Shown: positions 15,521 through 49,291 of the stretch, piece after piece
Layout: every line of letters begins with the position of its first letter
Position numbering within the stretch: the first letter of the stretch is position 1
Assembly (NCBI GenBank): GCA_964580765.1
Contig: CAZOKW010000003.1
Coordinates: 1-53,396, forward strand
Origin: an uncultured Candidatus Saccharibacteria bacterium
GTDB lineage: Bacteria > Patescibacteriota > Minisyncoccia > 2-02-FULL-40-12 > IGHO2-12-FULL-4
DNA length: 53,396 bases
Reading direction: 5' to 3'
Notes under the pieces: model-generated
Database searches by the model: none
What the model saw: the letters and a program-made list of their open reading frames with translations, nothing else
What the model was told of the DNA's origin: nothing
Position numbers and translations under genes: made by a program

Positions 15521-15691
15521 CTAGCTTTCGTTCAAATATGACCGATTGGCTGCAAATTACCGAAGCGGAGTGAAAATTTGGCCGGTAGATTAAAATTCGG
15601 TCCGACTCTTGGAGGGGTACTGAATTTTAGTCGGCAAATTGAGCAAAGCGAGGATAATTTGTCCAAGAGGACATCTTGAAAAGAGAGCTGG
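15521..15691 (+). ncRNA. candidate structured element SE, copy 1, upstream of the GT4 gene
   Basis: Near-identical to 34399-34589 over about 160 nt (ttcaaatatgNNcgattgg...ggaggggtactgaattttagtcggcaaattga...gcgaggataatttgtccaagagg.catcttgaaaagaga). It ends 17 nt before the ATG at 15709. Confidence 0.4.
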
Positions 15692-15708
15692 CAATTTAAT
15701 TAAAAAAT

Positions 15709-16875
15709 ATGTTAAGAATTGGTATAGAGTGCCATGCTCTAGAGGCAAATCGTTGGGGAGTGGGGCACCACTTAGCAAAACTGCTTGAAGAAATTTCTAT
15801 AAAATCTGAACTCGCCAACGAGTTCAGATTTTATCTTTACTTTAAAGGTCGTATTCCTGACGATTCTTACCTTAATAACCCCATCTTTGTAAAAAGAATT
15901 TTAAAACTACCCCTCATTAGTCCATCTTTTAACATTTTTTTTCATTTTCTTTTGCCCCTGGTCTACTTCAGAGACCATCTGCAAGCGGTCTTTTTTGCCG
16001 GTTTTATGTTGCCGGCATTTTTTCTGGGAAAATCATTGGTTCTTCTGACTAGCGACGTCTACTACGAATACACTCAAGGCCAATTGCCATTTCGCTACAA
16101 ATTGAGCTACGCCCTTTTCGCTAATTGGGCCGCTTGGCGCGCCACCAAAATTACCTCTCTATCAAACACGGACAAAGAGGAAATAGTAAAGATGTTTAAA
16201 ATTGCTCCTGAAAAAATCTCAGTCAATTATTTAGGGGTTGACCAAAAGCAGGTGGTTACCTCCCTTTTGCAGTTCGTCGGCGACGAGTCCGACGCAAAAA
16301 AGGGAGGTAACCACCTGCCTTTAAATTATCTTTTGTATGTTGGTCAAGCTTTTCCCCGAAGGAGAGCCAAGGAAACTATTCAATCCTTTGCTATTTTAGC
16401 TCCTAAGTATCCTGATTTAAAATTAATTCTGGTCGGCCAAGATAAATACAATCCGCCCGTTCTGCAAAATTTAGTTAAAGAAACAAACCAAAAACTCGGC
16501 GGGGAAAGAATAATTTATCATGGTTACATAGAAAACGACGATGAACTGCAAAAACTGATGGCCGGAGCAAAATTATTTATTTATCTATCGTCTTCCGAGG
16601 CCTTTGGTATTCCACCCCTGGAAGCACTAGCCGCCGGCGTTCCTCCGATAGTTAAAGACAACGACCTGAATCATGAACTTTATGAAGGCCATGCTTTTTA
16701 TGTGAAAGATGAAAAAGACCCGGTACAAATTGCCCTTGCTCTGGAAAAAGCTCTGACCGATATCGTCCGCCGTCAAGAAATTATTCAAAATTCAGAAAAA
16801 GTAATTTCAAAGTTCAACTGGAAAAATCACGCCGAAAAATTCCTTGAGACCATGAGAGAAATAGTAAAAAATTAA
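15709..16875 (+). CDS. GT4/GT1-family glycosyltransferase
   Basis: C-terminal EAFGIPPLEALAAGVPPIV retaining-GT motif. Confidence 0.7.
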   Translation: MLRIGIECHALEANRWGVGHHLAKLLEEISIKSELANEFRFYLYFKGRIPDDSYLNNPIFVKRILKLPLISPSFNIFFHFLLPLVYFRDHLQAVFFAGFMLPAFFLGKSLVLLTSDVYYEYTQGQLPFRYKLSYALFANWAAWRATKITSLSNTDKEEIVKMFKIAPEKISVNYLGVDQKQVVTSLLQFVGDESDAKKGGNHLPLNYLLYVGQAFPRRRAKETIQSFAILAPKYPDLKLILVGQDKYNPPVLQNLVKETNQKLGGERIIYHGYIENDDELQKLMAGAKLFIYLSSSEAFGIPPLEALAAGVPPIVKDNDLNHELYEGHAFYVKDEKDPVQIALALEKALTDIVRRQEIIQNSEKVISKFNWKNHAEKFLETMREIVKN

Positions 16876-18749
16876 TGCGAGAGGCTCCGGTGGACATACT
16901 TTTGTTCGACGGCGCTACAGGGATTCCGCAACGGGCCACTGCAGACATTGTGGCTACCGTTGCGGAACCTTCCATGCGACACAAAAGTGTCCCCACTCCG
17001 CCTCTGGTAAATATGTTTAAACACTTTGATACTCTTAAAAAACCAGTTAATGTCATCTTCCTAGTCCAAATTGTGGTCGTCTTTTTGGTGGCCTTCGGTG
17101 TCTGGCCAAGAACACTGATAATTCCTTTGACGGCCTTAATCGCCATTTTTATTTTACGAGCCGATTTGGAAACATCCGCTTCTTTTTTTATCCGCTCCAT
17201 ACCACTTTTCGTGGCCATTCCTTTTACCTCTTATTTTGATTCTTTCAATATCTGGCGAATCGCCGGGGGATTGATTTTTTTGAAATGGTTTTATCAATCG
17301 TACAAAGAAAGGATAAGAATAGCGGGCAAATCAGCCATACACCTACTCGAAAATTCCCGAGGAGATTCTATGGGCGGGCTAAAGCACCGCCCACCAGAAA
17401 CTTCTCCTGACAGCGACAGTCGAGGGTCGAGAGTGGGTGGTATGGCTGATTTGCTAGTCATAAAAATTAAAAAATATCCTTTAGCGTCTTTGTTAACGAC
17501 TTTTCTTTTACTTTCCACCCTATCCCTTCTAGCCGCCGAAGATATTTTTACTGGAATCAAAAGAATAATTTATTTAATCAATTTGAGTTTAGTTCCTCTA
17601 GTCGTTTACGACTTGATTAAAAAAAAACCCGCCCTCATCAAAAAGTTCTTAGATAGCATTTTGATTTCTGGAGTAATCGTGGCCGGAGTCGGCATCACCC
17701 AGTTAGTCAGCGCTTACTTAATGCCTTTGGGCGCTTTTCTGGATTTTTGGGGAGGTACGGTTCAGCTTGGCTTTTATGGCTCACAGTGGTCCAGTATCGC
17801 TTTAGAAGGGAACACTTGGTTTGCCTACTTCGGCGACCAACTATCTTTGCGAATTTTTTCAACTTTTACGGACTCTCACTCTTTTCCGGTTTACCTTTTA
17901 ATGACAATTCCAGCTCTCTTGGCTTTAGCTAAACTCACTTGGAAACGGGGTTTCCAAGTGAGTGGAATCGTTCTCCTTGTCTTGTATCTTCTGATTATCC
18001 TAAGCGGCACCCGAGGAATATGGTTAGCCGTTTTAGGACCTTTACTGGCTTGGCCGGTTTTAGTTAATTTTCTAAAAAGGGATGGGGGGAGTTTAGAAAA
18101 AAGTTTGTTAAAAAAACTCGGATTGCTCCTTTTGCCATTTTTTCTTCTTTTCGCCGCCGCTTTTCCTATTATGGGCTCGGACCAATTCTGGGTTGAAAAA
18201 GAAAATAATCAAATTCTGGCCAAACGGATTCGTTCCGTTCTCGATTTGAACGAGACATCAAATAGTGGACGGGTAGAAATCTGGAAAAAAACGGTCAAAT
18301 CAATTATTCACCGTCCGCTCCTGGGGGTGGGGATTGGTAACTTTCCAACTGTTCTTTCTCAGCATACTGACTTGGCCAAAGCCGGCTCTTCTGCGCATAA
18401 TCTCTATCTCCATATTGCCGCCGAAATCGGCCTAGTCGGGCTTTTAGCCGCTTTAGGTATTTTGTTCATAATTTTAAAAAGAAGTTGGGATGTTTTCCGA
18501 AGAGCCAATCAGCCACACCCCCACTCGAAAATTCCCGAGCGAGGAGTCGGGGGTCGAGAGTGGGTCGGTGTGGCTGATTGGCTCACTATTAAAACCTACG
18601 CTGCCGCTTTTGTCCTTTACAGTTTGTGGGTTTTGTTTTACTCTTTAACGGATGCGATAATGTTTGACGAGCGCGTTTTTCTCGTTTTTGCCATTAATTC
18701 AGCCGTTATTTTAGGTCTATATAAAACAAAATCCGCCTTAGCGGATTAA
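16875..18749 (+). CDS. O-antigen ligase (Wzy_C)-like polytopic membrane protein, with two in-frame family-2 element insertions
   Basis: Many TM helices. HNLYLHIAAEIGLVGLL Wzy_C-like motif. The start is uncertain because the first 40 codons overlap a family-1 remnant. Confidence 0.6.
   Translation: MREAPVDILLFDGATGIPQRATADIVATVAEPSMRHKSVPTPPLVNMFKHFDTLKKPVNVIFLVQIVVVFLVAFGVWPRTLIIPLTALIAIFILRADLETSASFFIRSIPLFVAIPFTSYFDSFNIWRIAGGLIFLKWFYQSYKERIRIAGKSAIHLLENSRGDSMGGLKHRPPETSPDSDSRGSRVGGMADLLVIKIKKYPLASLLTTFLLLSTLSLLAAEDIFTGIKRIIYLINLSLVPLVVYDLIKKKPALIKKFLDSILISGVIVAGVGITQLVSAYLMPLGAFLDFWGGTVQLGFYGSQWSSIALEGNTWFAYFGDQLSLRIFSTFTDSHSFPVYLLMTIPALLALAKLTWKRGFQVSGIVLLVLYLLIILSGTRGIWLAVLGPLLAWPVLVNFLKRDGGSLEKSLLKKLGLLLLPFFLLFAAAFPIMGSDQFWVEKENNQILAKRIRSVLDLNETSNSGRVEIWKKTVKSIIHRPLLGVGIGNFPTVLSQHTDLAKAGSSAHNLYLHIAAEIGLVGLLAALGILFIILKRSWDVFRRANQPHPHSKIPERGVGGREWVGVADWLTIKTYAAAFVLYSLWVLFYSLTDAIMFDERVFLVFAINSAVILGLYKTKSALAD
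16878..16918. repeat. truncated family-1 hairpin element (half copy, minus orientation)
   Basis: gaggctccggtggacatacttttgttcgacggcgct matches the left half of the reverse-oriented copy at 36301-36380. Confidence 0.4.
17328..17452. mobile_element. family-2 RPE-like element, copy 2, with a 50-nt internal insertion
   Basis: Same termini aaatcagccatacacc / ggtatggctgattt. The extra internal hairpin is gggcgggctaaagcaccgccc. It is in-frame in the ligase gene. Confidence 0.65.
18505..18581. mobile_element. family-2 RPE-like element, copy 3
   Basis: ccaatcagccacacc / ggtgtggctgattgg is a perfect 15-bp terminal stem with paired compensatory changes (atac to acac, gtat to gtgt). It is read in a different frame from copy 2 within the same ligase gene. 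Confidence 0.65.
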
Positions 18750-18764
18750 GCAAAACATATCAAA

Positions 18765-19022
18765 CTAGCAAGAACGAACAACATTTCTAAAATAACCGTA
18801 TTGACTAAAAGACGATTGCACTTTTGAAATCTTATTTTTCTTTACTAAATTGTCAAGCGCTAATTGTATTTCTTGATCATTTGCAAAGATCAATTTATCT
18901 CTCAATAACGCACCTATGAAATCCAAGGTGGGGTCGCCGCTAGTAGCCAATAGACCGAATATTTCTTCTTCCAGTTCCATCTTTCCAATATCCTTTTTTC
19001 CAACTATAACTTTCCAAGCCAT
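18765..19022 (-). CDS. hypothetical small protein (85 aa)
   Basis: Start assigned at the MAWKV ATG, which has AAGGAG 9 nt upstream. The ORF-track start at 19103 lacks an RBS. Confidence 0.35.
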   Translation of the reverse strand: MAWKVIVGKKDIGKMELEEEIFGLLATSGDPTLDFIGALLRDKLIFANDQEIQLALDNLVKKNKISKVQSSFSQYGYFRNVVRSC

Positions 19023-19090
19023 TAGCCATTTCTCCTTTTGACACAATATCTGTAAAGAACTTTCCCTAATAAAATCATTTAAAACCAAAA

Positions 19091-20143
19091 ATGTCAACTC
19101 CACTGGTTACAATTAATTTAGTCGTTCTCAACGGTAAAAAATATGTCCGCCATTGTTTGAAGGCGGTGCAAGAGCAAACTTATCAGAATCTGGAAGTAAA
19201 TGTTTTTGATAATGGTTCCACCGATGGCACCAAAGAGATAATCCAAAATTGGAAATTGGAAATTGGAAATTGGAAATTGATTAATTTTATAGAAAGTAAA
19301 ATTAATCTCGGCACTTGGCCAGGGCAGGAAAAAGCGATGGAATCCTCACGAGGAAAATATATCGTGGCCCTTTCGGTAGATGTCTTAATGGAACCCACCG
19401 CGATTGAGAAAGCAGTAGTGGTTTTGGAAAAAGACGAAAGCATTGGCGCTCTGGAAGCCAAAATTTTACAATACACAATTGAGGCTAAGCCTCAATTTGA
19501 AGAAGGGGAGATTGTCAAAACAAATCTCATTGACACAATCGGTTTTCAAATTTTCCGCTCCAGAAGGATAACTAATTTGGGCCATGGAGAAGAAGATAGA
19601 GGACAATACAACCAAGAAAAAGAAATTTTTGCTGTAGAAGGAGCAGCGCCCGTTTTGCGAAAATCCGCTCTGGAAGAAATGCGGGTCTTGGGGGAAATAG
19701 CCGACCGGGAAATGTTTTGGTATGGAGATGACTTGGACTTGGCCTGGCGGATGAGATTGTTTGGCTGGAAACAAGTTTACAGCCCGGAAGTGGTGATGTA
19801 TCATGACCGTTCTACCACTAAAGGGGTAAGCCGAGGATGGAAAGATTATCTCTTCAGAGTGGGAGATAGAAAGAAAATTCCTACTTTAAAAAAGCGCCTG
19901 GACTGGCGGAATAAACGGCTGGCCAGAATAAAAAATGACCATTGGCAAAACGCGCTGAAAGACCTTTGGCCTATCGCTTGGCGAGAGCTCCGCGAATTGG
20001 GATATATTGCTCTTTTTGAACCGGCGGTTTTGCTGGAAATCCCCAAACTAATTCGCCTCCTTCCGCGCACTCTTAAAAAAAGGAAGGTGATAATGGCCCG
20101 AGCCAAAGTCGGCCCTAAAGAAATGAGTAAATGGTTTTTATGA
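19091..20143 (+). CDS. GT2-family glycosyltransferase containing a heptanucleotide tandem repeat
   Basis: VFDNGSTDGT and YGDDLDLAWR motifs. (ggaaatt)n at 19233-19268 lies inside the coding region. Confidence 0.7.
   Translation: MSTPLVTINLVVLNGKKYVRHCLKAVQEQTYQNLEVNVFDNGSTDGTKEIIQNWKLEIGNWKLINFIESKINLGTWPGQEKAMESSRGKYIVALSVDVLMEPTAIEKAVVVLEKDESIGALEAKILQYTIEAKPQFEEGEIVKTNLIDTIGFQIFRSRRITNLGHGEEDRGQYNQEKEIFAVEGAAPVLRKSALEEMRVLGEIADREMFWYGDDLDLAWRMRLFGWKQVYSPEVVMYHDRSTTKGVSRGWKDYLFRVGDRKKIPTLKKRLDWRNKRLARIKNDHWQNALKDLWPIAWRELRELGYIALFEPAVLLEIPKLIRLLPRTLKKRKVIMARAKVGPKEMSKWFL
19233..19268 (+). repeat. heptanucleotide simple-sequence repeat, 4 perfect GGAAATT units (about 5 AAATTGG-like units)
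   Basis: aaaattggaaattggaaattggaaattggaaattga. The unit length is not a multiple of 3, so a one-unit change would shift the GT2 frame. Confidence 0.75.
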
Positions 20144-21138
20144 ACAGAAAAAAGAAAATTATATTAATAGCCGGTATGATGATTTTTCTTTACACTATTT
20201 CTACTCTCGGAAAAAGCTCCCGTGTCATCACGGCCGAAAATCCACCCTGGTGGCAAAAAGTCGGCTTATTTTTAAACTTCGGCCTACCCATCTCTTCTTC
20301 TCGGGAGCAAAAAGAAATCCTGGACAAAAACTTCCCCTTACCAACGGAAGAAGAAAATCGCTGGGATGTTTTGATCCTGGGCATTCGGGGATCTGAAGAT
20401 CCGGATGGCGGACTGTTAAGCGACAGTATCTTGCTTTTCAGTTTAAACAAAGAAACGGGAAAATCGGGTTTAACTTCCATCCCGCGAGATATTTACGCGG
20501 AAATGCCCGGATTAGCTAAAGGAAAAGTAAATGAAATTTACGAAAAGGGGATAGCCCGCCGAAAAGCACTTGATTTTTCTAAAGAAGCCTTTTCCCGTTT
20601 AACCGCAATCTACATAGACAATGTGATTATTTTTGATTTCAAGGCCTTTAGGGAAATTGTTGATGCTTTAGAAGGAATAGATCTCAATCTTAAAAAACCA
20701 TTTGAAGAAAAAAACCAATGGGGCTATGAATTTTCTTTGCCAGTCGGTCCAAACCATCTCAACGGCCAAGAAGCCCTTTACTTTGTCCGCTCCCGCTACA
20801 GCACCAGTGATTTTGACCGGTCTTTGCGCCAACAACAAGTTATTTTGGCCATAAAAAATAAAGCGTTCAGCGCCGGAATTTTAAGCAATCCGCTTAAACT
20901 CGGACCTCTTTTAAAAAGCGTCACTAAAAATATCATGACTGACCTGAATATTTTTGACACCGGCCATCTGATTAAATTAGCCAACTCTTTCAACCCCAAA
21001 GAAAATGAGCCGGCTCTCGGCCATCTTTCCACTAATAATATTCTTGACCAGACCTTTCAAGACGATATTTATATTCTCCGGCCGAAAAATAACGACTGGC
21101 AGTTATTCCGAAAGTATTTTAAGGATATATTAAATTAG
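20131..21138 (+). CDS. LytR-CpsA-Psr (LCP) family cell-envelope glycopolymer ligase
   Basis: N-terminal TM helix. DSILLFSLNKETGKSGLTSIPRDIY and NEIYEKG are LCP hallmarks. Confidence 0.7.
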   Translation: MVFMNRKKKIILIAGMMIFLYTISTLGKSSRVITAENPPWWQKVGLFLNFGLPISSSREQKEILDKNFPLPTEEENRWDVLILGIRGSEDPDGGLLSDSILLFSLNKETGKSGLTSIPRDIYAEMPGLAKGKVNEIYEKGIARRKALDFSKEAFSRLTAIYIDNVIIFDFKAFREIVDALEGIDLNLKKPFEEKNQWGYEFSLPVGPNHLNGQEALYFVRSRYSTSDFDRSLRQQQVILAIKNKAFSAGILSNPLKLGPLLKSVTKNIMTDLNIFDTGHLIKLANSFNPKENEPALGHLSTNNILDQTFQDDIYILRPKNNDWQLFRKYFKDILN

Positions 21139-21143
21139 CTATC

Positions 21144-34338: not shown

Positions 34339-34398
34339 AGGGGAAGAAATTGGCTGGCATTGCTTTTGAAAGTGCTGCGCTTTAATTATTTTAAGCAA

Positions 34399-34589
34399 AG
34401 TACCCACCCATCTTTTTTCAAATATGGTCGATTGGTTGCAAATTACCGAAGCGGAGTGAAAATTTGGCCGGTAGATTAAAATTCGGTCCGACTCTTGGAG
34501 GGGTACTGAATTTTAGTCGGCAAATTGAACGGAGCGAGGATAATTTGTCCAAGAGGGCATCTTGAAAAGAGAGGGGTGGGGACGGAGCT
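34399..34589 (+). ncRNA. candidate structured element SE, copy 2, upstream of fmt
   Basis: About 95% identical to copy 1. The 5' end gtacccacccatcttttttcaa is complementary to the 3' end cttgaaaagagaggggtggggac. It ends 9 nt before the fmt ATG. Confidence 0.4.
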
Positions 34590-34597: not shown

Positions 34598-35488
34598 ATG
34601 AAAATTATTTTCTTTGGAACTTTTCAGTACGCCGTTCCGGCTTTGGAACGGTTAATTAAGGCCGGCTATGAGATTGTGGCCGTTGTCACTAACCCCGATT
34701 CTTTTCAGGGAAGAAAGAAAGAATTGGTGGCCAGTCCCGTCAAACTCGCCGCCCAGCAATACGGCTTAACTGTTTTTCAGCCTCCCAGTTTGAAAATTGG
34801 AAAATTAGAAAATTATTTGGAAATTGAAAATTTTAAATTGAAAATTAAATCCGCCGATCTGGGCATCGTCGTAGCCTACAGCAAAATAATCCCAAAAGAA
34901 ATTTTGGGATTATTTCCTAAAGGTGTTTTGAACATTCACCCCTCTCTCCTGCCCCTTTACCGGGGTCCCTCCCCTATTCAGTCGGCTATTTTAAACGGAG
35001 AAAAAGAAACGGGAGTAACCATTATGCAAATTGACGAAGAAGTGGATCACGGGGCCATTTTATCTCAAGCCAAATATGTAATTCCTCCCGAAGCGCTCCA
35101 CCCCCAAATTGCCATGGAAATTTTCCAGTTAGGAGCAGAACTTTTAATTAAAACTATCCCCGATTGGCTGGCTGGAAAAATCATCCCCCAGCCCCAAGAA
35201 CACACTTGTGCCACTTTTACTAAAAAATTCTCCTGGGAAAACGGGCGAATTGATTGGAATCAGCCGGCGGAAAAAATATATAACCAAATCCGCGCCCTCA
35301 ATCCTGAACCCGGCACCTGGACCACTTGGAAACGGGGTTTCCAAGTGAAAATCTTGAAAATATTAAAAGCCGAAATCGGAGAGGATGGAAAAGTACTTCC
35401 TCAAGAAGTCCAACCGGAAGGCAAAAAAGCCATGCCTTTCCAAGATTTCCTCCGTGGAGTTGGCCAAAAAGAACTGGATTTTAAATAG
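34598..35488 (+). CDS. fmt: methionyl-tRNA formyltransferase
   Basis: IIFFGT and HPSLLPLYRGPSPIQ SLLP-type motifs. There is a low-complexity AT-rich insertion LKIGKLENYLEIENFKLKIKS at 34795-34860. Confidence 0.85.
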   Translation: MKIIFFGTFQYAVPALERLIKAGYEIVAVVTNPDSFQGRKKELVASPVKLAAQQYGLTVFQPPSLKIGKLENYLEIENFKLKIKSADLGIVVAYSKIIPKEILGLFPKGVLNIHPSLLPLYRGPSPIQSAILNGEKETGVTIMQIDEEVDHGAILSQAKYVIPPEALHPQIAMEIFQLGAELLIKTIPDWLAGKIIPQPQEHTCATFTKKFSWENGRIDWNQPAEKIYNQIRALNPEPGTWTTWKRGFQVKILKILKAEIGEDGKVLPQEVQPEGKKAMPFQDFLRGVGQKELDFK

Positions 35489-39939: not shown

Positions 39940-42624
39940 TTACTTAAATACTACAATAAATATCCCATCTTTGAAATCCACATTTATCACCGTTCCCCGC
40001 GCCGGCTTCTCCCGCAAGATCTCATCGGAGATGCGGTTCTCAATTTGTTTTTGGATTATCCTGCGCAACTCCCGCGCTCCAAAATGAGGGTCATATCCTT
40101 CTTCGGCAATTTTAGCGACGGCCTCCGGACTGATCTTTAAATCATAACCGGATTTATTTAAGCGGGATTGCAAAAATCCTAATTGCAATTTTACTATTTC
40201 GGCGATCTGTTCTCTGGGTAAACCGTGGAAAACAATAATTTCATCCAAACGGTTTAAAAACTCCGGCCGGAAATACTTTTTAAGCTCATCTTTAAGTTTG
40301 ACCCGCAAGTCCTCGTAAGCCATCTGTTTCTTTTCTTCTTTGTCCAGTTCGTGCTGAATAATATCAGAACCGACATTACTGGTGGCGATAATAATAGTAT
40401 TGGTAAAATCAACTACCCGGCCCTGCCCGTCGGTCAGTCGTCCGTCCTCCAAAACCTGCAAAAGGACATTAAAAATATCCGGATGGGCTTTTTCAATTTC
40501 ATCCAACAGAACGATAGAGTGGGGACGGCGGCGGACCGCTTCGGTCAACTGTCCCCCTTCTTCAAACCCCACATAGCCTGGAGGAGCGCCGATCAACCGC
40601 GCCACATTGTGCCTCTCCATATATTCCGACATATCCAGCCGAATCATGGCCTCCTGATTTCCGAACATCACCTGCGCTAAAGAACGGGATAATTCCGTCT
40701 TGCCCACTCCGGTCGGACCTAAAAATATAAAAGAAGCGATGGGACGATGCGGATCGCCCAAGCCCGCCCGGGACCGACGAATAGCGCTGGCCACCGCTTT
40801 GATGGCCTCTTCTTGTCCGATCACCCGCAAAGACAACTTTTTCTCCAGATTCAAAAGTTTTTCCCGCTCTTCTTCGGTTAGTTCACTGACCGGAATGCCA
40901 GTTAATTTGGAAACAACCTCCGCAATGGCATGCTCGTTCACCACCGGAATACTTCGGCCGATTGATTCCTGCCATTGGTCAAAAAGCTGTTCCCTCTTTT
41001 TTTCCAATTCACCAATCTCTTTTTTAATTTTATCCGCTTCTTTTATTTTCTTGGCTCGCTGGGCCGCTTCTAACTCTTTTTTAAGAGAATGGATATTTTC
41101 ATCCAATTCCCGTACCTCCTGCGGTTCGGAGGTAGATTGAATCCGCACCCGCGCCGCCGCCTGATCCATCAGGTCAATGGCTTTATCCGGCAAAAAACGA
41201 GAAGTAATATAACGATCGGAAAGCTCCGCCGCCGCCGCCAGCGCTTCGTCTAAAATCTTGATCCGGTGATGTGATTCATAACGATCCCGCAAACCGCGCA
41301 AAATTTCAACGGCCTGTCCTACGGTCGGTTCTGGTATGACAATCGGCTGGAATCTTCTTTCCAGCGCCTGGTCTTTCTCAATGTATTTTTTGTATTCTTT
41401 TAAAGTAGTAGCCCCCACCACATGCAGTTCACCTCGGGCCAAAGATGGTTTGAAAATATTAGCCGCGTCCATCCCCGATTCCCCGCCGGAACCGGTGCCG
41501 ACTAAAAGATGCAATTCATCTATAAAAATTATTAAGTTATCCCGATTAGCTTTTATTTCTTCAATGATAACCTTGAGCCGTTCTTCCAAATCACCCCGAA
41601 AACGGGTACCGGACATAATGGCCGCCAAATCCAGTTCCGCTAATCTTTTTCCAAACAATGACTCCGGCACACTGCCGGAAACAATGCGTTGCGCTAATCC
41701 CTCCACGATAGCGGTCTTACCAACCCCCGGCTCCCCGATTAGCACCGGATTGTTTTTGGTGCGGCGGGACAAAATTTCCACCGCCGTTTCAATTTCTTTA
41801 GACCGGCCAATAACCGGGTCCAGTTTCCCTTCCCTAGCCAACTGGGTCAGATCGCGGGAAAATTTGTCTAAAGTAGGCGTATTCATTTTAATAACACTCT
41901 CCGCTTTGCCCATCCCCACTTTTTTGATGATTTTCTGGCGCAAAGGGCCGGCATCGGCCAGACCATATCTTTTCAAAAGCTGACTGGCCAATCCCTCGCC
42001 TTCTTTAATCAAGGCCAGAACTAAATGTTCCGGGCCGATGTAATTGTGATTCAAAGCGCGAGCTTCGTCCAAAGACAGATCAAAAACCCTTTTCAAGCGG
42101 GGAGAATATTCTAATTCCTGTGGCACAGTTGTGCCCTTGATCATATTATCTTTGATCTCTTTTTCCAGTGATTTAACATCAATTTTTAACTGCTTCAGAA
42201 CGCCGGCCACGATCTCGTTTTGCAACAAACTAAACAAAAGATGCTCCGTATCGATCATGGCATGCCTGCTATCTTGGGCGAACTCCGCCGCCCGGTCTAA
42301 AATACCGTTGGCCTCATCGGAAAGATAATCTGTGAAATCCACTCTTTCTTCCGAGGGAGCGCGCATTTGGCCGGGCAAACCAAGTCCCTCCAATCCACTA
42401 CCACCCAGACCACCGCCCTGACCGCTTCCGCCACCTCCAAAAATATCTCCAAAAAGACCGCCAAAGATGTCATTTAAATTGCCGAACTCCCGGCCACTGG
42501 AACGACCCTGGGTCTTATTGGCGCACTGCTGGCAAATATCCTTAACCTGTTTGACGCCATTTTTTATAATGCTGATTTTGCCGCTCGCCCTATTCTTCTT
42601 ACAAATATCGCAAATATTATTCAT
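39940..42624 (-). CDS. clpB: ClpB/ClpC-type Hsp100 chaperone ATPase with an N-terminal ClpX-like C4 zinc ribbon and a Gly/Phe-rich linker
   Basis: Two AAA+ modules (GEPGVGKTAIVEGLA and FLGPTGVGKTELSRSLA), a coiled-coil M-domain, a Clp_N-like segment and GAPPGYVGFEEGG. The N-terminus CDICKK-x21-CQQC followed by DIFGGLFGDIFGGGGSGQGGG is unusual. Confidence 0.85.
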   Translation of the reverse strand: MNNICDICKKNRASGKISIIKNGVKQVKDICQQCANKTQGRSSGREFGNLNDIFGGLFGDIFGGGGSGQGGGLGGSGLEGLGLPGQMRAPSEERVDFTDYLSDEANGILDRAAEFAQDSRHAMIDTEHLLFSLLQNEIVAGVLKQLKIDVKSLEKEIKDNMIKGTTVPQELEYSPRLKRVFDLSLDEARALNHNYIGPEHLVLALIKEGEGLASQLLKRYGLADAGPLRQKIIKKVGMGKAESVIKMNTPTLDKFSRDLTQLAREGKLDPVIGRSKEIETAVEILSRRTKNNPVLIGEPGVGKTAIVEGLAQRIVSGSVPESLFGKRLAELDLAAIMSGTRFRGDLEERLKVIIEEIKANRDNLIIFIDELHLLVGTGSGGESGMDAANIFKPSLARGELHVVGATTLKEYKKYIEKDQALERRFQPIVIPEPTVGQAVEILRGLRDRYESHHRIKILDEALAAAAELSDRYITSRFLPDKAIDLMDQAAARVRIQSTSEPQEVRELDENIHSLKKELEAAQRAKKIKEADKIKKEIGELEKKREQLFDQWQESIGRSIPVVNEHAIAEVVSKLTGIPVSELTEEEREKLLNLEKKLSLRVIGQEEAIKAVASAIRRSRAGLGDPHRPIASFIFLGPTGVGKTELSRSLAQVMFGNQEAMIRLDMSEYMERHNVARLIGAPPGYVGFEEGGQLTEAVRRRPHSIVLLDEIEKAHPDIFNVLLQVLEDGRLTDGQGRVVDFTNTIIIATSNVGSDIIQHELDKEEKKQMAYEDLRVKLKDELKKYFRPEFLNRLDEIIVFHGLPREQIAEIVKLQLGFLQSRLNKSGYDLKISPEAVAKIAEEGYDPHFGARELRRIIQKQIENRISDEILREKPARGTVINVDFKDGIFIVVFK

Positions 42625-42737
42625 GTTTGCTTCGCAAACTAGTTTATAAAGTTCGTAAAGTTCTTCAAGTTTATCAAGTAAGATTCTTTTTCAACTTCTT
42701 TACTTTATAAACTTGATGGACTTTATAACTTGATAAA

Positions 42738-43493
42738 CTAATTTAACTCGTTCATTTTTTTTGTTATGTATTTTAACAAAGATAGATTTCTGTGATAAGC
42801 CATGCGCATCGGCCCAATGACGGCCGAGACACCTTCATGCCCCTCCGGCAACGGATAGCGGGCAATAATTATGGCCTCTTTTTGAGTATGCTTATGGGGA
42901 TTTTCCCGGCCAATATAGACCACTAATTCTTTGGGGCCTTGTCCCAAAAACTGACTGAAATAATTTTCAAATTCATCAAAGATATTTCCAAAACCGAAAA
43001 AGTCATCCCTCTCCCTCGCCTCGCTGGAGCTCCGGCGAAGCGGGTCGAACTCCGGCGATTCCAAAATATTGGAAAACCCCATGCGATAAAATTCGTTGGT
43101 GTCGGCAAGACCGCTAATCACAAAATCATCCACCAGGTTAGACATGGTTTTGGCCAAACCGGAACTGATGGCATGCGCTTCACGGGGAGAATGCTCAATG
43201 GCCCGGTCAATCGCTCGGCGGTCCTGCGCCGGCAAGTCGCCGGTTTTTTCTTTTTCCTGAAGCAATTTATCCACAAAAAAACGGTAGGCCTTGTCGGTTG
43301 GCACCCGCCCGGCGGAAGTATGGGGCTGGCGAAGATAACCATCCTTTTCCAATCCCATCATCTCCGCCCGCAAAGTGGCCGGACTGCAGTCAAACCCGCA
43401 TTTTTCCGCCAAAAAACTTGAGCTGATTGGTTCGGCCTTTTTGACATATTCTTTAATTAAGACCTGGAGTATTTCCTCCTGCCTGGAAGTCAT
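42738..43493 (-). CDS. hrcA: heat-inducible transcription repressor HrcA
   Basis: N-terminal winged-helix ILQVLIKEYVKKAEPISSSFLAEKCGFDCSPATLRAEMMGLEKDGYL. Sits directly upstream of clpB. Confidence 0.85.
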   Translation of the reverse strand: MTSRQEEILQVLIKEYVKKAEPISSSFLAEKCGFDCSPATLRAEMMGLEKDGYLRQPHTSAGRVPTDKAYRFFVDKLLQEKEKTGDLPAQDRRAIDRAIEHSPREAHAISSGLAKTMSNLVDDFVISGLADTNEFYRMGFSNILESPEFDPLRRSSSEARERDDFFGFGNIFDEFENYFSQFLGQGPKELVVYIGRENPHKHTQKEAIIIARYPLPEGHEGVSAVIGPMRMAYHRNLSLLKYITKKMNELN

Positions 43494-43988: not shown

Positions 43989-43992
43989 AACG

Positions 43993-44021: not shown

Positions 44022-44049
44022 ATTAATAAGAAAGTGTTAAAATTTTAGG

Positions 44050-45303: not shown

Positions 45304-46739
45304 TGAAAATCTACAACACTCTAACCAAACAAAAAGAAGAGTTCATTCCGCGAGAAGGCAAAAAAATTAAAATGTTTGTCTGCGGACCGACCGTTTATGA
45401 TTACATCCACATCGGCAACGCCCGCTCGTTTGTTTTTTTTGATGTGGTGGCTAAATACCTCCGCCACAGCGGATACGAGGTGGAATACATCCAAAATATC
45501 ACGGATATTGATAACAAGATTATTGAGCGCGCCCAAGAAGAAAACATCAATCCGTTGGAATATGCCAAGAAATACAGCGAAATTTTCCAAGAAGATATGC
45601 GGTCTTTGGGAGTTACTTCTCCGGAATATAAAAACGCCACTGACCATATTCCGGAAGTTATAAAACAGGTCCAAACTTTGCTGGACAAAGGCAACGCCTA
45701 TATAATTGATAACGACCCCGAACCACAACAAGTTGGCTACGGGGCAGGCGGTATATATTTTGATTTATCAACTTTCCCCGACTATGGAAAACTTTCCGGC
45801 CGAACTGCCAAGATGGCCGACGACGCCGTCAGCCGGATAGATGAAAATGACCAAAAAAGAAATAAAGGTGACTTTTGCTTATGGAAAATATCCAAACCTG
45901 GAGAACCATCCTGGGAAACTGAACTTGGGAAAGGCAGACCGGGATGGCATATCGAAGACACCGCCATTACCGAAAAATATTTCGGTCCGCAATATGACCT
46001 GCACGGCGGAGGGCAGGATTTAATCTTCCCCCACCACGAAGCGGAAATCGCTCAACAAGAATCCGCCTCCGGCCTAAAACCTTTTGTAAAATACTGGATG
46101 CACAGCGGATTTCTGGTTAATAAAGAAAAAAAAATGTCCAAGTCGTTGGGAAATTTTTTGACTCTGAACGAAGCCCTAAAAAATTATTCCCCTGAAACCC
46201 TCCGCTTTTATTTCCTAAGTGCCCACTACCGCTCCCCGCTTGATTTCAGCGAAGAAATTCTCAAACAAGCCGAAGCGGCGGTAGCTAGGCTCGGAGAATT
46301 TAAATATAAAATAAAAATCATAGCCGAAACAGAAGAGAAAGGTGGAATTATTTCGGATGATACTTTCAATAAATTTTTCAACGATTTAACAAAAAACTTT
46401 CAAGAAGGAATGAACGATGATTTCAATACACCCAAAGCTTTGGCTAGTTTATTTCAAGCTGTTAAGAACTGGCATCTTATTTCAAGCGGCGGGGTTATAT
46501 CAAAAGACAGAGCCAAGGAAATAATAACCATTCTTGCAGAAATAAACCAAATTCTTGGAGTAATCCCAGAGAAAGTTATTAAAATCAGCAAAAAGATGGA
46601 GAACTTAATCGAAGAAAGAGAAAAAGCCCGGGAAACAAAGGACTTCGCCGTCGCCGACCAACTCCGTTCCCAAATTGAATCTCTCGGCTATCAAATCGAC
46701 GACACGATTTATGGGCCTTTGGTGAAGAAAAAGGGATAA
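45300..46739 (+). CDS. cysS: cysteinyl-tRNA synthetase
   Basis: CGPTVYDYIHIGNAR (HIGN) and KMSKSLGN (KMSKS) motifs. Confidence 0.9.
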   Translation: MMKIYNTLTKQKEEFIPREGKKIKMFVCGPTVYDYIHIGNARSFVFFDVVAKYLRHSGYEVEYIQNITDIDNKIIERAQEENINPLEYAKKYSEIFQEDMRSLGVTSPEYKNATDHIPEVIKQVQTLLDKGNAYIIDNDPEPQQVGYGAGGIYFDLSTFPDYGKLSGRTAKMADDAVSRIDENDQKRNKGDFCLWKISKPGEPSWETELGKGRPGWHIEDTAITEKYFGPQYDLHGGGQDLIFPHHEAEIAQQESASGLKPFVKYWMHSGFLVNKEKKMSKSLGNFLTLNEALKNYSPETLRFYFLSAHYRSPLDFSEEILKQAEAAVARLGEFKYKIKIIAETEEKGGIISDDTFNKFFNDLTKNFQEGMNDDFNTPKALASLFQAVKNWHLISSGGVISKDRAKEIITILAEINQILGVIPEKVIKISKKMENLIEEREKARETKDFAVADQLRSQIESLGYQIDDTIYGPLVKKKG

Positions 46740-46751
46740 AAAAGCCCAGGA

Positions 46752-46782
46752 GGTCATGAGTGAAATGTTTCACCTCACGACC
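46752..46782. terminator. hairpin between the convergent cysS and flotillin genes
   Basis: ggtcatgagtgaaatgtttcacctcacgacc, about a 14-bp stem with one mismatch. Confidence 0.4.
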
Positions 46783-46802
46783 CCCATGGGTTAGGACTAC
46801 GA

Positions 46803-48812
46803 CTAGGTGTCTGTGGAAACAACAACCTCGCCGTTAGTTGGTTGCCCCGGAATCACGGCAGGAACCGTGGACTCTGGAATTGAAGCCGGCTTCATGTGTT
46901 TCAGAAAGCCGAACATCCCAGCACTGATGGCCGCCATTGGATCTGTTCCGCCGGCTCCACCTTGAACAAGAATGTCGGGAACGAATCGTGTCGCACTTCT
47001 TACGAGCGCGTTCACAACGTTCACTATCGCCGTCCCTTCGGCACCAAGAGCAGCAACCTGCTCCTTGTATCCCAGGGCCTGAGCTAGACCAGTGGCCTCG
47101 ATTTCGACGGCCTTGGCACGGCCGACCTCTCTGAGATAAGTGGCTTCGCCCCTGGCCGTCTCAACCCTGGCATTGGCCTTATTCTTTTCGATTGTGATCT
47201 CGACCTCTGAAGTGGCCAGATCTTTCTGCTTGTCGGCGAGACCCGTCGCTTTCTCCATATCAAGACGCTTTTCCTGAGATTCCTTCTGCTTTTCGAAGGT
47301 CTTGATCTCCTGATTTGCAATCTCACGTTCCTGGAGAACAACGACGATATCCGGAGGGAGGACGACATCCTGAATGTAGACACCGCGCGTCTCCACATTG
47401 TATTTTTGAATCTGCTCAGCAATGTACGCCTGAGCCGTTACCTGAACTTCAGCACGCTTCTCGATGAAATCGATTGCTCCCATGCCCTGGAGCTGGTCGC
47501 GGAAGTAGTTGCCGACGACCGCCTGCAGAACTTCGTTGACAAGGTTCTGCATTGTGCCAACCATGGAGATGACTTTGGGAGCCATCTTGTCGGCCACATG
47601 GATCTGAACCTGAAGGTCGATCTTGAAGACGAACCCTTCCTTCGATTTGGCTTCAATCTGGCTCAAACCCTTGTCCAGGTTATGTGCCTGGGAAGTGGCC
47701 GCAGCCCAATTGAGAGTCAAGATCGCCGTAGGAACGACCTCCGCAGAGTAGATCCGCGGATTGATGGCGTACTTGCCTGTGCGCAAAGGTTCCTGCCAGA
47801 TACCGCGATGACCCGGCTTAACGATCGAACCAAATTTGAACTCTGCGCCGGATGTGTCCTCGGTGGGCAGACCGACCGCGGCCTTGATAACCGCCACTTC
47901 GCCCTGCTTCACGACGAGCATCGGCACGGTCTCTACCCTAACGAGGTAAGGATTGACTGTGTACGCGCCGTAGAGAAGCGGGTCGTGCTGAAGACCGATC
48001 TTGCCGCCGTTGTCCAGAAAGGCCTGGAAGTCCTGGTAGTTGTTGTGGAGGTTGTTCTTATTACCGATGAGCACATCGGCAATATCCGAATCGCTCTTGT
48101 GCTCATCCTCCATCTTTTTTACATCATCAAAACGGCCAAGACGCCCGGCCATATCACCAGATGCGAGTGGGTCACCCTCGTTGGTGGTCACAATCCCCAC
48201 CATATCGATGGTCTTTCCGTCATCGCGTCTCGGCTCAATCAATGTCAGCTTCAGGTCTTCCGACTTGACACCAAAGTGTTCGGGACCGAACCTCCCATCA
48301 CGATATTGCTCGTTCACAGGCAACCCGAATTGCTTGCTTTTGGTCATGACGAGAAATGCGATGGGGTGAAGAGGCAGAAGTGCACCAGGAGGTAGCACGG
48401 GACGCTGAACGCCCTGCTGACCACCGTTTTCGAGAAATATCCGTAGGTCGGTGAATTGACCAAATTCAGATTTGTAGATGGCGGACTTGGCCCCTGTCGG
48501 TAACGGGCCGCCAATCTGCGACACAACGAGGCCAATCTCTCCCGGGGGAATCTGTACCCAAGGATGCCTTTCTACTTTGTAAAGGGGCCAAAGTTTGAAC
48601 GGAATGCCTGACATGAGCAGGTCGGCTTGGTAGCCGGACTCGCCGGTCAGGGAAATAGGCCCCGAGGATGTCTTCGTCTTGCCAAAACGCTTGGTAACAA
48701 GACCGACCTGGTCGGGGCCTATCTTGTGAAATGACATTGCAACGGTAAAAATGACCGCCACTGCCACCACAAGAAATGGTGAGTACCAAATCCACGAAAT
48801 CAAAGTTTCCAT
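46803..48812 (-). CDS. flotillin/SPFH-domain protein with EA-repeat coiled-coil; GC-rich (about 60%) gene
   Basis: N-terminal TM helix, SPFH domain, long E/A/Q-rich coiled-coil (EVQVTAQAYIAEQIQKYN...). A 60-nt sample at 47041-47100 is 62% GC against about 40% for the window. Confidence 0.75.
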   Translation of the reverse strand: METLISWIWYSPFLVVAVAVIFTVAMSFHKIGPDQVGLVTKRFGKTKTSSGPISLTGESGYQADLLMSGIPFKLWPLYKVERHPWVQIPPGEIGLVVSQIGGPLPTGAKSAIYKSEFGQFTDLRIFLENGGQQGVQRPVLPPGALLPLHPIAFLVMTKSKQFGLPVNEQYRDGRFGPEHFGVKSEDLKLTLIEPRRDDGKTIDMVGIVTTNEGDPLASGDMAGRLGRFDDVKKMEDEHKSDSDIADVLIGNKNNLHNNYQDFQAFLDNGGKIGLQHDPLLYGAYTVNPYLVRVETVPMLVVKQGEVAVIKAAVGLPTEDTSGAEFKFGSIVKPGHRGIWQEPLRTGKYAINPRIYSAEVVPTAILTLNWAAATSQAHNLDKGLSQIEAKSKEGFVFKIDLQVQIHVADKMAPKVISMVGTMQNLVNEVLQAVVGNYFRDQLQGMGAIDFIEKRAEVQVTAQAYIAEQIQKYNVETRGVYIQDVVLPPDIVVVLQEREIANQEIKTFEKQKESQEKRLDMEKATGLADKQKDLATSEVEITIEKNKANARVETARGEATYLREVGRAKAVEIEATGLAQALGYKEQVAALGAEGTAIVNVVNALVRSATRFVPDILVQGGAGGTDPMAAISAGMFGFLKHMKPASIPESTVPAVIPGQPTNGEVVVSTDT

Positions 48813-48887
48813 ACACTTCTCTTTCTACTATTTAAGGCATAGCTGCCATTTGAATTGTTTACGAACTAGGACCAATTGATGTTGAAT

Positions 48888-48918
48888 AGTATACTATATT
48901 ACTAATAAACTTGTCAAG
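48888..48918 (-). promoter_or_regulatory. sigma70-like promoter TTGACA-N19-TATACT for the flotillin gene
   Basis: Minus strand reads ttgacaagtttattagtaatatagtatact, about 75 nt upstream of the start at 48812. Confidence 0.4.
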
Positions 48919-48961
48919 ACCAGGTAGAAAATCGTCATTACTCCACATCTTATCCCCTTTT

Positions 48962-48985
48962 AAATTCCGTTGTGCGGAATTTTTT
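48962..48985 (+). terminator. rho-independent terminator-like hairpin
   Basis: aattccgttgtgcggaatt followed by ttttt. Confidence 0.4.
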
Positions 48986-49032
48986 ATTATAATGAGGCGA
49001 CCCATTAGAGTGCTTAAAGAATTTCAAGCGCA

Positions 49033-49291
49033 GTCCCACCCACCTTCTTTTCAAATATGAGCTCGCCGGCATAAATAAACGAAGATTTCTGAAATCAAGC
49101 CGGTAATAAAAATTGGGTCCGATGGTTTCGAGGGGTACTGAATTTTTGTCGGCTTGATGCGGTTAAAGTGAATTGTTTCACTTTAACCCCGAATTTTAGT
49201 CCGAGCTCCTGCGAGGACGTTAGGAAATTCGGAAAACCTTTTTATTGGCACGGCGAGTGATTCTTGAAAAGAGGTGGGTGGGGACGGAGCG
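49033..49291 (+). ncRNA. candidate structured element SE, copy 3 (divergent, with an extra internal hairpin), upstream of dnaB
   Basis: Shares ttcaaatatg, gccgg, ggtccga...gaggggtactgaatttt.gtcggc, gcgagga and cttgaaaagagg with copies 1 and 2. The 5' end gtcccacccaccttcttttcaa pairs with the 3' end cttgaaaagaggtgggtggggac. The inserted perfect hairpin is gttaaagtga/tcactttaac. Confidence 0.4.

Follow-up and report, generated by a model that had tools for sequence, protein, structure and literature searches.

Why should closely similar structured elements stand immediately upstream of three functionally unrelated genes, and are they regulatory RNAs, promoter cassettes or something that moves? 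The question is raised by the window, i.e., the whole 53,396-nucleotide stretch of DNA analysed here, in which an earlier note had described three copies of such an element. We consider it reasonably probable, with moderate confidence, that the element is a mobile palindromic repeat of REPIN/RPE/MITE-like character (RPE, Rickettsia palindromic element), present in transcripts of neighbouring genes as an RNA rod.

Copies in the window

The three copies lie where they had been placed: the apical 24-nt motif GAGGGGTACTGAATTTTNGTCGGC occurs exactly three times in the window, always on the + strand, with 0 occurrences expected, and the downstream genes carry the Pfam domains that their names imply (Glycos_transf_1 for GT4, Formyl_trans_N/C for fmt, and DnaB/DnaB_C for dnaB). 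Copy 1 (15509..15703, + strand; type I core 15527-15690) occupies the entire spacer between the GT2 and GT4 genes, and its closing helix (TTAATTAAATTGCTAGC.. / ..GCTGGCAATTTAATTAA), unique to this copy, has the GT2 stop codon inside its 5′ arm. Copy 2 (34395..34589, + strand; type I core 34413-34576) is located between a tRNA-binding-domain gene and fmt; its closing helix (GTACCCACCCATC.. / ..GAGGGGTGGGGAC), with the outer segment GCAAAGT/ACGGAGC, is a pyrimidine-rich/purine-rich 'class a' base. Copy 3 (49028..49290, + strand; type II core 49046-49278), which precedes dnaB, was rightly described as collinear with an extra perfect hairpin: on its 3′ side it bears a nested insert of ~70 nt (roughly 49159-49240), in which a perfect 12-bp hairpin (49161-49188) is accompanied by another that partly duplicates the apical motif. 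From the hairpin end to the start codon, the gap measures 6, 9, and 29 nt in copies 1, 2, and 3, respectively; that the element is tied to the start codon after it is not supported, as elsewhere copies are located between convergent genes or run antisense to the genes on both sides.

In copies 2 and 3, the 5′ and 3′ ends are indeed complementary. The same pairing had been called weak in copy 1, where the ends do differ in sequence (TTAATTAAATTGCTAGCTTTCGTTCAA / TTGAAAAGAGAGCTGGCAATTTAATTAA) but form an equally long helix, and this copy folds at -78.3 kcal/mol (z -7.96). The close likeness of copies 1 and 2 stands, although their core identity is 93.3% (153/164) rather than the claimed ~95%; copy 3 shares ~81% core identity with either of them. 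An identity of 93% could in itself mean that a single intergenic or promoter segment of this genome was recently duplicated, yet it stops abruptly and symmetrically at the core edges, the flanks are unrelated, and at least five other genomes or metagenomes carry the family at different, non-orthologous loci, so this origin is refuted.

Besides the three full copies, the 53 kb contain one half copy (51483..51559, - strand), the reversed 3′ half of a type II element, which was recovered by nhmmer (E=2e-4, model positions 95-161) and carries TCTTGAAAAGAG on the - strand. It ends at the apical GGTACC, the exact start of an 'X' element. This X module (51565..51727, + strand), a distinct rod-like element with a closing helix of 20-34 bp and no Rfam match at E<=10, occupies the spacer between recR and rplU, two genes that just 9 nt separate in L005.

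A modular rod

Every window copy forms one long rod, an imperfect inverted repeat of 190-260 nt (z -7 to -9). In a fold alignment of 12 full copies from at least five related Parcubacteria genomes or metagenomes, paired cells reached 91.6% (slid controls, 39-48%), and both sides had changed in 27 of 65 pairs; the covariation score was 0.328 versus at most 0.09, and none of 500 shuffles attained 0.328. Compensatory changes keep pairing in these elements, and the notion of a conserved, structured, multi-copy module is upheld. The accompanying idea of a large RNA in which a closing helix surrounds a complex core is not supported: the element is an imperfect palindrome, a single rod in which the tip and interior can be replaced.

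The rod is modular, with a conserved middle that ends in the apical motif or in another tip, and with a base that is either of the family-typical pyrimidine/purine kind or unique to the copy. Closing helices are near-perfect duplexes of 20-35 bp and largely copy-specific, the outer helices being wholly different among copies. The more stable strand is the + strand in all 12 copies, and closing-helix mismatches are G.U more often than A.C (23 versus 8, p=0.011). The apical domain is replaced in L023, L008 has a nested insert as copy 3 does, and in L018 (5766-6020) the interior of a focal-family base has given way to a homologue of the X module, so that the two families form composites. The apical 24-nt motif is unvarying in all retrieved copies, a conservation that is partly circular because part of the motif served as a collection query. 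No conserved ORF is shared across the copies.

A rod of ~190 nt with a conserved apical sequence recalls 6S RNA, and a variable helix could in principle carry specificity, as would suit a family of trans-acting structured non-coding RNA genes, whether 6S-like rods, ribozymes, or guide RNAs with a targeting stem. We regard such a family as very improbable. As the earlier note had anticipated, the whole window gave 0 Rfam matches at gathering thresholds, and no family emerges even at E<=10, where copies 2 and 3 yielded in Rfam 15 chance-level miRNA, CRISPR-repeat, and sRNA matches far under the cut-offs. Moreover, no copy has a terminator of its own, the copy number per 53 kb would be unusual, the apical domain can be dispensed with in L023, and the variable arms pair mutually; 11-mers of six focal-family arms (four loci) recur in ~330 kb at chance level.

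Occupied and empty sites among relatives

The family consists of non-coding, non-autonomous palindromic repeats of ~190 nt, with variants to ~260 nt, and occurs only within a narrow clade of ultra-small Parcubacteria (CPR/Patescibacteria). The sampled part of the MAG GCA_030695705 gave five matches and at least four copies, metagenomes gave seven more matches, and nhmmer added one divergent copy; L001 and L004 are two halves of a single copy, with contigs breaking within the repeat. Core likeness across genomes at non-orthologous sites is 90-98%, which would fit recent spread as well as constraint. All 14 copies of the focal family are intergenic, and none is inserted in-frame in a gene. The genes downstream of the copies are GT4, fmt, dnaB, proS, pilB, efp, and another GT. 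All three window copies, as well as copies at four of five informative loci between co-directional genes, are co-oriented with those genes; three loci lie between convergent genes, and the L015 copy is antisense to both neighbours. The earlier argument against a metabolite riboswitch is borne out by the lack of functional relation among downstream genes and of a fixed orientation, which likewise sets the element apart from a gene-specific leader.

Comparison of orthologous junctions shows that the element is insertion-polymorphic: close relatives differ by gain, loss, or replacement of copies between genes. Six relatives sampled (L018-L026) have nothing inserted at the fmt site, and in relatives whose fmt is 62-72% identical the gene before it abuts fmt or overlaps it by 0-8 nt. 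No element separates GT2 from GT4 in L033, where the genes overlap by ATGA, while L027, L028, L029, and L031 hold other, unrelated hairpin elements there, each different. L002 has a copy upstream of pilB that the syntenic L015 does not have; in the ruvB-comEA spacer, L015 carries the focal element and L002 another family; and a copy upstream of efp occurs in L012 and L023, but not in the window, where efp starts 12 nt after a permease gene. Upstream of dnaB, the orthologous copy in L005 is without the insert and shows compensated changes in the closing helix, and L006, a near-identical strain, is missing 25 nt of the 5′ arm. With empty orthologous sites, and with one junction holding different hairpin elements in different genomes, the mobile module becomes the best-backed part of the earlier reading.

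The boundaries of the mobile unit are poorly defined. No target-site duplication was detected: the longest word shared by the two boundaries averages 3.25 nt versus 3.75 nt in mismatched controls, and no copy shares a 6-nt word at its outer boundaries. AAAAATA, a possible repeat around copy 1 and the unrelated L029 element, is A-rich and was left out of the count, and no conserved flanking tetranucleotide or pentanucleotide was seen by eye.

The same junctions bear on the proposal that the element is a cassette whose promoter drives the downstream gene, which now appears highly unlikely. A conserved -10-like hexamer is found in the 3′ half (GATAAT in type I, TATTAT in type II), accompanied in copies 1 and 2 by a weak -35 (9/12 matches). 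However, a 9/12 sigma-70-like match is no better than dinucleotide shuffles (mean 0.6-0.9 per region), the hexamer lies within a covarying helix, several copies are without a co-oriented downstream gene, and at dnaB, in the window as in L005, a better TATAAT precedes the element. Copies 1 and 2 need no promoter, since they lie within operons whose genes are contiguous in relatives.

A more substantial alternative, although still an unlikely one, is that the host maintains the rod as a cis-acting RNA module, either an RNase III processing site or an mRNA-end protection in polycistronic transcripts, with mobility secondary or ancient. The prevalent co-orientation with neighbouring genes agrees with such a role, as do the closing duplex of 20-35 bp, which is of the RNase III substrate class, the preference of the + strand for G.U over A.C, and the compensated helix changes between orthologues (copy 3 and L005; L003 and L011). 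The L003/L011 pair is 95.6% identical over 206 nt, including a unique 34-bp helix, whereas beside these copies the four-fold sites of ligA are 47% identical and the neighbouring spacer 58%. Being unlike neutral decay, this conservation points to purifying selection (a possible host function) or recent exchange, and it counts against the reading that we favour. Against a maintained module, however, stand the junctions that are empty in close relatives with no substitute seen, the L015 copy in antisense and the three convergent loci, the replacement of tip or interior by unrelated sequence, and the near-identical strain deprived of 25 nt of one arm. Furthermore, the hairpin families of the window taken together show no sense preference (10 sense, 7 antisense), and related families are inserted in-frame in coding regions, where a processing site would do harm.

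Mode of spread and likeness to known repeats

For the mobile palindromic repeat that we favour, spread as DNA via a single-stranded hairpin intermediate may be envisaged, which would explain the missing target-site duplication, the strand-specific tolerance of G.T/G.U, and the insertions at tips. The most plausible enzyme would be a Y1 transposase of the RAYT/IS200 type acting in trans. No transposase is found within the window; a gene of this type, however, is present in relatives: in L034 and L035, a Y1_Tnp gene has the REP-associated tyrosine transposase as its top NCBIfam match (58.6 bits versus a family cut-off of 80) and stands at a syntenic position with an identical 30-nt palindrome on each side. 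The gene is missing at the same site in L003 and L011, the palindromes beside it differ from the focal element, and the sampled DNA of L034 and L035 is without a focal copy.

Two routes to a copy-specific helix can be proposed, both drawn from other hairpin families of the same genomes and not from the focal family: the core may land at the tip of a pre-existing local palindrome, or the stem may be extended by intrastrand template switching that makes an inverted copy of one flank. The window holds 26 clusters of perfect inverted repeats of at least 12 nt versus 1.9 in shuffles, and close relatives have 4-8 per 10 kb. Several hairpin elements lie in-frame within window genes (13776-13939, 14982-15061, 16244-16322, and 18502-18584), and orthologues have bare perfect palindromes without a core at these linkers. 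A flank duplicated in inverted orientation is seen directly in L028, where the 3′ arm of an in-gene X element matches, as an exact reverse complement, a 20-nt coding stretch starting at PPV codons that are conserved in the protein alignment.

Most copies are situated inside co-oriented genes or directly ahead of them and would for that reason be co-transcribed, forming a double-stranded RNA rod with a base of 20-35 bp or more. The rod would act as an RNase III site or as a stabiliser of mRNA ends, an effect that the host might exploit and that we would regard as a side effect, not as a gene-specific regulatory switch. A broader conception, which we put forward as a tentative and rather doubtful one, is that the rods, beyond being selfish DNA, are part of an undescribed hairpin-based system in one clade of CPR bacteria, in which conserved modules would be inserted or excised at the tips of local palindromes, stems would arise by inverted copying of a flank, and resident copies with their unique stems, at gene junctions and even coding linkers, would be under purifying selection as host RNA or single-stranded DNA structures.

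Among known systems, the mobile repeat shares several traits with REPs and REPINs, being extragenic, multi-copy, and non-coding, with two inverted arms in one long hairpin, compensatory changes, strand specificity of the hairpin, and no target-site duplication; the RAYT-like Y1 transposase flanked by palindromes at a syntenic site in two relatives would be a candidate counterpart of the RAYT gene. REPs of E. coli carry a GTAG motif. Most focal copies have a similar G(C/T)AG just 5′ of the helix: class-a copies begin with GCGCAGT or GCGTAGT, and the helices of L003, L011, and L010 have GTAG, GCAG, and CGTAG at their 5′ foot, although the motif is short and the sample small. Unlike REPINs, the focal element is about twice the typical length, its apical domain is conserved and partly unpaired, and its closing helices are copy-specific, with swappable modules. 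It may also depart from the REP-RAYT arrangement, in that the candidate RAYT-like gene is found only in L034/L035 and is flanked by palindromes of other sequence.

The palindromic elements of Rickettsia (RPEs), by their description, are similar in comprising several palindromic families of ~80-200 nt in a small, reduced genome. To our knowledge, neither copy-specific stems nor nested composites have been described for RPEs, which also belong to a different phylum. RPEs insert in-frame in protein-coding genes (PMC10969869), as do the sister families studied here (X-like, Y, and others) at permissive linkers, whereas the focal family is found only between genes. The Correia/NEMIS elements of Neisseria and the ERIC sequences of enterobacteria are likewise small, non-autonomous, intergenic, and co-transcribed as long hairpins; RNase III cuts Correia transcripts at the inverted repeats, and ERIC insertions change mRNA decay (PMC10969869). 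By analogy, RNase III cleavage or a change in mRNA decay is a likely downstream effect here too.

With MITEs, the element has in common its terminal inverted repeats, small size, and absence of coding capacity. It differs from them in lacking a target-site duplication and termini common to the copies and an autonomous insertion sequence: focal termini are not conserved between copies, and no insertion sequence is known whose ends would match those of the element and mark it as the parent. Quasipalindrome-associated template switching is a mutational mechanism of E. coli (Ripley, Lovett). It would explain, without selection, the perfect arms, the compensated coding changes, the stems entering one flank, and the bare perfect palindromes at the same sites of orthologues. 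Nevertheless, it is a mutational process and not an element, and it leaves the shared cores and the above-neutral conservation unexplained. The element most resembles the palindromic "selfish" repeats of other bacteria rather than a gene-specific regulatory RNA.

Copies of the palindromic repeat and their rod fold

The source organism belongs to the Parcubacteria (CPR/Patescibacteria), and homologues of the window proteins bear the names Yanofskybacteria or Parcubacteria. The window contains three full hairpins of the focal family, all on the forward strand: copy 1 (15509-15703) in the GT2-GT4 spacer, copy 2 (34395-34589) upstream of fmt, and copy 3 (49028-49290) upstream of dnaB, gene annotation thus bearing out the neighbours GT4, fmt, and dnaB named in the earlier note. 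A 24-nt motif, GAGGGGTACTGAATTTTNGTCGGC, likewise occurs three times in the window, always on the forward strand, with none expected by chance; the rod apex sequence of the family is GGAGGGGTAC. Copies 1 and 2 share 93.3% identity over a 164-nt core alignment, either of them is ~81% identical to copy 3, and the similarity ends abruptly and symmetrically on both sides of the core. Additionally, nhmmer detected a focal half copy, cut at the apex, on the reverse strand (51483-51559). The absence of any RNA family match holds for the whole window against Rfam 15 at gathering thresholds, for copies 2 and 3 at E ≤ 10, and for the four regions or loci searched at E ≤ 5-10, while a tRNA/tmRNA scan of the window found no genes. 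In L006 (2729-2960), a near-identical strain and second assembly of the same population (GCA_007376105.1) whose DnaB is identical to that of the window, the 5′ arm of copy 3 (window 49028-49290) is missing 25 nt (CCACCCACCTTCTTTTCAAATATGA), either as true strain variation or as a hairpin assembly artefact.

Every window copy folds into a single long imperfect hairpin, or rod, with free energies of -78 to -114 kcal/mol and z scores of -7 to -9 relative to dinucleotide shuffles, rather than into a multi-domain RNA. Nor is end-pairing weak in copy 1, as had been thought: its terminal sequence is different and pairs over ~21-27 bp. Structure counts were made on a MAFFT alignment of 12 full copies, which fall into two core subtypes, type I (the copy in L015, a locus of a relative, together with window copies 1 and 2) and type II (the remainder). 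Folding more copies in an alignment, a check that the earlier note had proposed, revealed a conserved structure with compensatory changes: RNAalifold gave 58 pairs with compensatory change in 22, and a 65-pair rod shows both-sided change at 27 pairs, although independent events are fewer than these counts would imply, since the 12 copies come from few lineages. Standard pairs occupy 91.6% of the cells of the 65-pair rod, compared with 39-48% in controls whose partners were shifted by 1-3 columns, and the covariation score is 0.328 versus at most 0.09 in controls, a value reached by none of 500 shuffles. On these alignments, the predicted rod structure of the focal family is not in doubt.

The closing helix at the outer base of the rod is largely copy-specific. 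Approximately half of the copies have a common pyrimidine-rich/purine-rich base, GCG(C/T)AGT-CCCAYCC..CTTTTCAA / TTGAAAAG..GGRTGGG-ACG(G/A)AGC, in which differences are compensated, whereas the remaining copies carry unrelated closing-helix sequences that are nevertheless paired over 21-34 bp, including a perfect 34-mer in the related locus L003. When, to probe the idea of nested insertion, 11-mers of the copy-specific arms were sought across ~330 kb, a small sample, recurrence was near the chance rate. Closing-helix mismatches comprise 23 G.U pairs on the plus strand versus 8 on the minus strand (p = 0.011), and every one of the 12 focal copies folds more stably on the plus strand; together, these asymmetries indicate that only one strand of the hairpin is read, whether as RNA or as single-stranded DNA.

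Distribution and gene context

A scan of one genome per species returned five matches, all from the MAG GCA_030695705.1, two of which are halves of one copy that broke the assembly. The metagenome scan yielded seven further real focal loci, three of its 11 matches (L007, L009, and L016) being discarded as chance matches to the 20-nt pattern with 19 specified bases, and nhmmer on the relatives' loci added one divergent copy, so that this search recovered all copies with shared sequence. The apical 17-mer had no match in a viral-contig scan, blastn against phage and plasmid collections found no relative of the element, and no account of such elements emerged from literature searches in which Patescibacteria or Parcubacteria was combined with MITE, palindromic, hairpin, or structured RNA.

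Comparison of syntenic sites reveals presence and absence of the element. Copy 2 sits between a tRNA-binding-domain gene and fmt, while in six relatives (fmt 62-72% identical) the upstream gene abuts or overlaps fmt. Copy 1 fills the GT2-GT4 spacer; the two genes overlap by ATGA in L033, and the same junction holds an element of a distinct rod family, X, in L028, one of another family, Z, in L029, and still other inserts in L027 and L031, each insert with its own closing helix. The loci L002 and L015 are syntenic, with a focal copy upstream of pilB in L002 and none in L015, whereas the ruvB-comEA spacer is occupied by a Z-type rod in L002 and, in L015, by a focal copy that runs antisense to the genes on either side. 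An ORF of 118 residues without a Pfam match (L002, reverse strand, 3468-3824) adjoins the focal copy upstream of pilB; since both ORF and element are missing in L015, the insert is larger than the element alone. A focal copy also lies upstream of efp in L012 and L023, but not in the window, whose efp starts 12 nt after a permease gene. At the dnaB-upstream site, an orthologue of copy 3 is present in L005, which makes copy 3 older. Between co-directional genes the focal copy is in sense orientation at four of five loci, and three focal loci lie between convergent genes. Examination of metagenomic relatives, also suggested in the earlier note, thus found the element beside other genes (pilB, efp, ruvB-comEA), and this variable context rules out a gene-specific leader.

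Other rods and modular composition

The focal family is accompanied by a general excess of inverted repeats. With arms of at least 12 nt no more than 300 nt apart, the window has 26 clusters of perfect inverted repeats versus 1.9 in dinucleotide shuffles, a roughly 13-fold excess, and about half of these clusters lie within genes, including fmt (34884-34915), dnaB (49405-49552), and clpB (40727-41046). Long inverted repeats number 4-8 per 10 kb in close relatives and ~2 in more distant ones; the excess was also seen in L028, L029, L011, L010, and L015. Among all window hairpins there is no stability bias to the sense strand (10 sense, 7 antisense, and 4 equal).

The X rod (51565-51727, plus strand) takes up the recR-rplU spacer, a gap of 9 nt in L005, and has a 20-34 bp closing helix around the conserved core GTGGATTGC..GGTTGG-hairpin-CCAAATCCACAGGC, with no Rfam match; a terminator-like hairpin lies beside it at 51735-51760. 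Homologues occur in L028, at the GT2-GT4 junction, and in L018, within a focal-type base. Two further intergenic rods, at 12751-12972, where the mreB-GT spacer is only 9 nt in L028, and at 50689-50839, each combine an X-like core with an individual closing helix of 16-24 bp and fold more stably on the minus strand. Another X-like rod (13776-13939) is in-frame inside a gene for a GT4-family glycosyltransferase (13192-14445), adding 55 residues at a hypervariable inter-domain linker; the two closest homologues also have it, and L027 has it with a partial deletion. Its tip is ~97% identical in the window and L028, while the outer helices of the two differ entirely. In the L028 in-gene rod, the 3′ arm exactly matches the reverse complement of a 20-nt coding stretch starting at conserved Pro-Pro-Val codons, which is direct evidence that inverted copying of the flank can make one arm.

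The Y family, an 80-nt palindrome (AATCAGCCATACACCCACTCGAAAATTCCCGAGCGA..GTCGAGGGTCGAGAGTGGGTGGTATGGCTGATT), is in-frame in two window genes, GT2 (14982-15061) and the Wzy-type gene (Wzy_C; 18502-18584), and intergenic in L034 (4527-4605). Its stem in GT2 differs between the window and L028 by four compensated pair changes within coding sequence, while L027 lacks the Wzy-gene copy and has a nested insert within the GT2 copy. A further hairpin lies within GT4 (window 16244-16322 in GT4 15709-16875), and orthologues carry three entirely different perfect hairpins at the same linker (L028:13010-13100; L027:4039-4135; L031:6589-6690). Some of these are bare palindromes that lack a conserved core, with stems of 19-22 bp and loops of 2-3 nt, that of L031 being a perfect 22-bp stem. 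Such hairpins suggest de novo inverted duplication or excision footprints. The Z family, a fourth rod with the core GGACGCTCAAAGCTGCGAGCGGCATGGTTTGTCAA.., is found at an intergenic junction (L029:8255-8385), in-frame in a glycosyltransferase linker (L029:6600-6790), and in reverse orientation downstream of ruvB (L002, reverse strand, 7135-7305).

Further palindromes were noted. Two intergenic ones in the window (7823-7893 and 42641-42739) are built from one short word (ATAAAGTTCATAAAGT-like) and may represent bidirectional terminators or another small family of repeats. An AT-rich 160-nt palindrome with 19-nt perfect outer arms (11493-11654) lies between the divergent genes 10229-11488 (minus strand) and mreB, a spacer of only 87 nt in L028. 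In L011 (reverse strand), the ~420 nt separating the focal copy from tgt contain a ~215-nt structured stretch enclosed by a perfect 25-bp helix (TTCCGTACCCATCTAATTTTTACAC / GTGTAAAAATTAGATGGGTACGGAA), after which comes a short element in reverse orientation that combines a focal-type base with an X-like fragment.

Focal copies are themselves modular. The apical domain, otherwise invariant, is swapped for unrelated sequence in L023, and copy 3 and the L008 copy have extra nested hairpins. In L018 (5766-6020), a module homologous to the window X rod is enclosed by a family-typical focal base, and the window X rod abuts the focal half copy at the apex of the latter. The motif GGAGGG(G/C)T(T)AC, shared by the focal apex and the 5′ edge of X in the window as well as in L018, may mark a junction or target.

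Nature of the element

Several readings were weighed against these features. The idea of a promoter-carrying cassette was not upheld, the sole internal sigma-70-like match (9/12) being at shuffle level, and no convincing promoter or terminator was found within focal copies. A small-protein reading was dropped: the ATG of AAATATG is conserved, but the frames that follow have only 5-11 codons and depend on subtype. No ORF of at least 20 residues is common to all focal copies, and the type I toxin or hok-like reading was dropped for the same lack. A retron ncRNA was rejected; the ends pair like a1/a2, but no neighbouring gene encodes a reverse transcriptase. Neither target-site duplications at focal copies nor a transposase or integrase within the window was found.

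A candidate enzyme emerged during a search for empty ligA-tgt junctions: two relatives encode a Y1_Tnp protein of 224-229 residues on the minus strand (L034:1724-2398; L035:1541-2230), with the HUH motif HFHLL and the tyrosine in YIHLNP. In NCBIfam it matches only the REP-associated tyrosine transposase, with a score of 58.6 bits that falls short of the cut-off of 80. In both relatives the RAYT-like gene occupies one position upstream of ligA, between it and a pilin-like gene, and is absent there in L003 and L011; one 30-nt palindrome occurs on both sides of it (ATTGTCAAGGTT.AACCTTGACAAT in L034; CCATTTCAAGGCC..GGCCTTGAAATGG in L035). These loci contain no focal copy, and the flanking palindromes differ from the focal element. 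Y1 transposases act on single-stranded hairpins and leave no target duplication. This mode of action would fit the focal features, and the gene represents a lead.

The conservation of some copies is puzzling. Orthologous copies downstream of ligA in L003 and L011 are 95.6% identical over 206 nt, their unique helix included, while four-fold sites of ligA are 47% identical and the adjoining spacer is 58% identical and essentially unalignable; the helix proper has two differences, both C-G to G-C double changes. Between genomes, focal cores at sites that are not orthologous share 90-98% identity. A resident selfish copy would be expected to decay neutrally, and arm-to-arm correction preserves pairing but would not retard divergence, so that such copies are either under purifying selection or exchanged or renewed between lineages far faster than nearby genes. 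The pattern is not uniform, since the dnaB-upstream pair of the window and L005 is much more diverged, with compensation.

The focal family is real and belongs to no known RNA family. The best-supported reading makes it a new, mobile family of rod-forming palindromic repeats that is of the REPIN/RPE/MITE kind and occurs in a Parcubacteria clade. Focal copies would be co-transcribed as long RNA hairpins, which RNase III may process. Unusually, its stems are specific to individual copies, its modules can be swapped, and one orthologue is strongly conserved; together, these traits leave room for a host function.

CPR/Patescibacteria genomes are small and are regarded as streamlined and poor in mobile DNA. 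In contrast, this clade has several rod-forming repeat families and 4-8 long inverted repeats per 10 kb, occupying gene junctions and in-frame sites in glycosyltransferase and O-antigen-ligase genes. For annotation, such elements yield false structured RNA candidates, longer proteins, and broken assemblies. They also offer a system outside proteobacteria for asking how palindromic repeats move, possibly via a RAYT-like Y1 enzyme, and pose the question of whether long RNA hairpins between cistrons are used for mRNA processing where regulators are few. Current models of MITE/REPIN insertion account for neither the copy-specific stems nor the conserved L003/L011 orthologue. The window hairpins that lie in-frame in genes resemble the palindromic elements of Rickettsia, which likewise insert in-frame in genes (PMC10969869).
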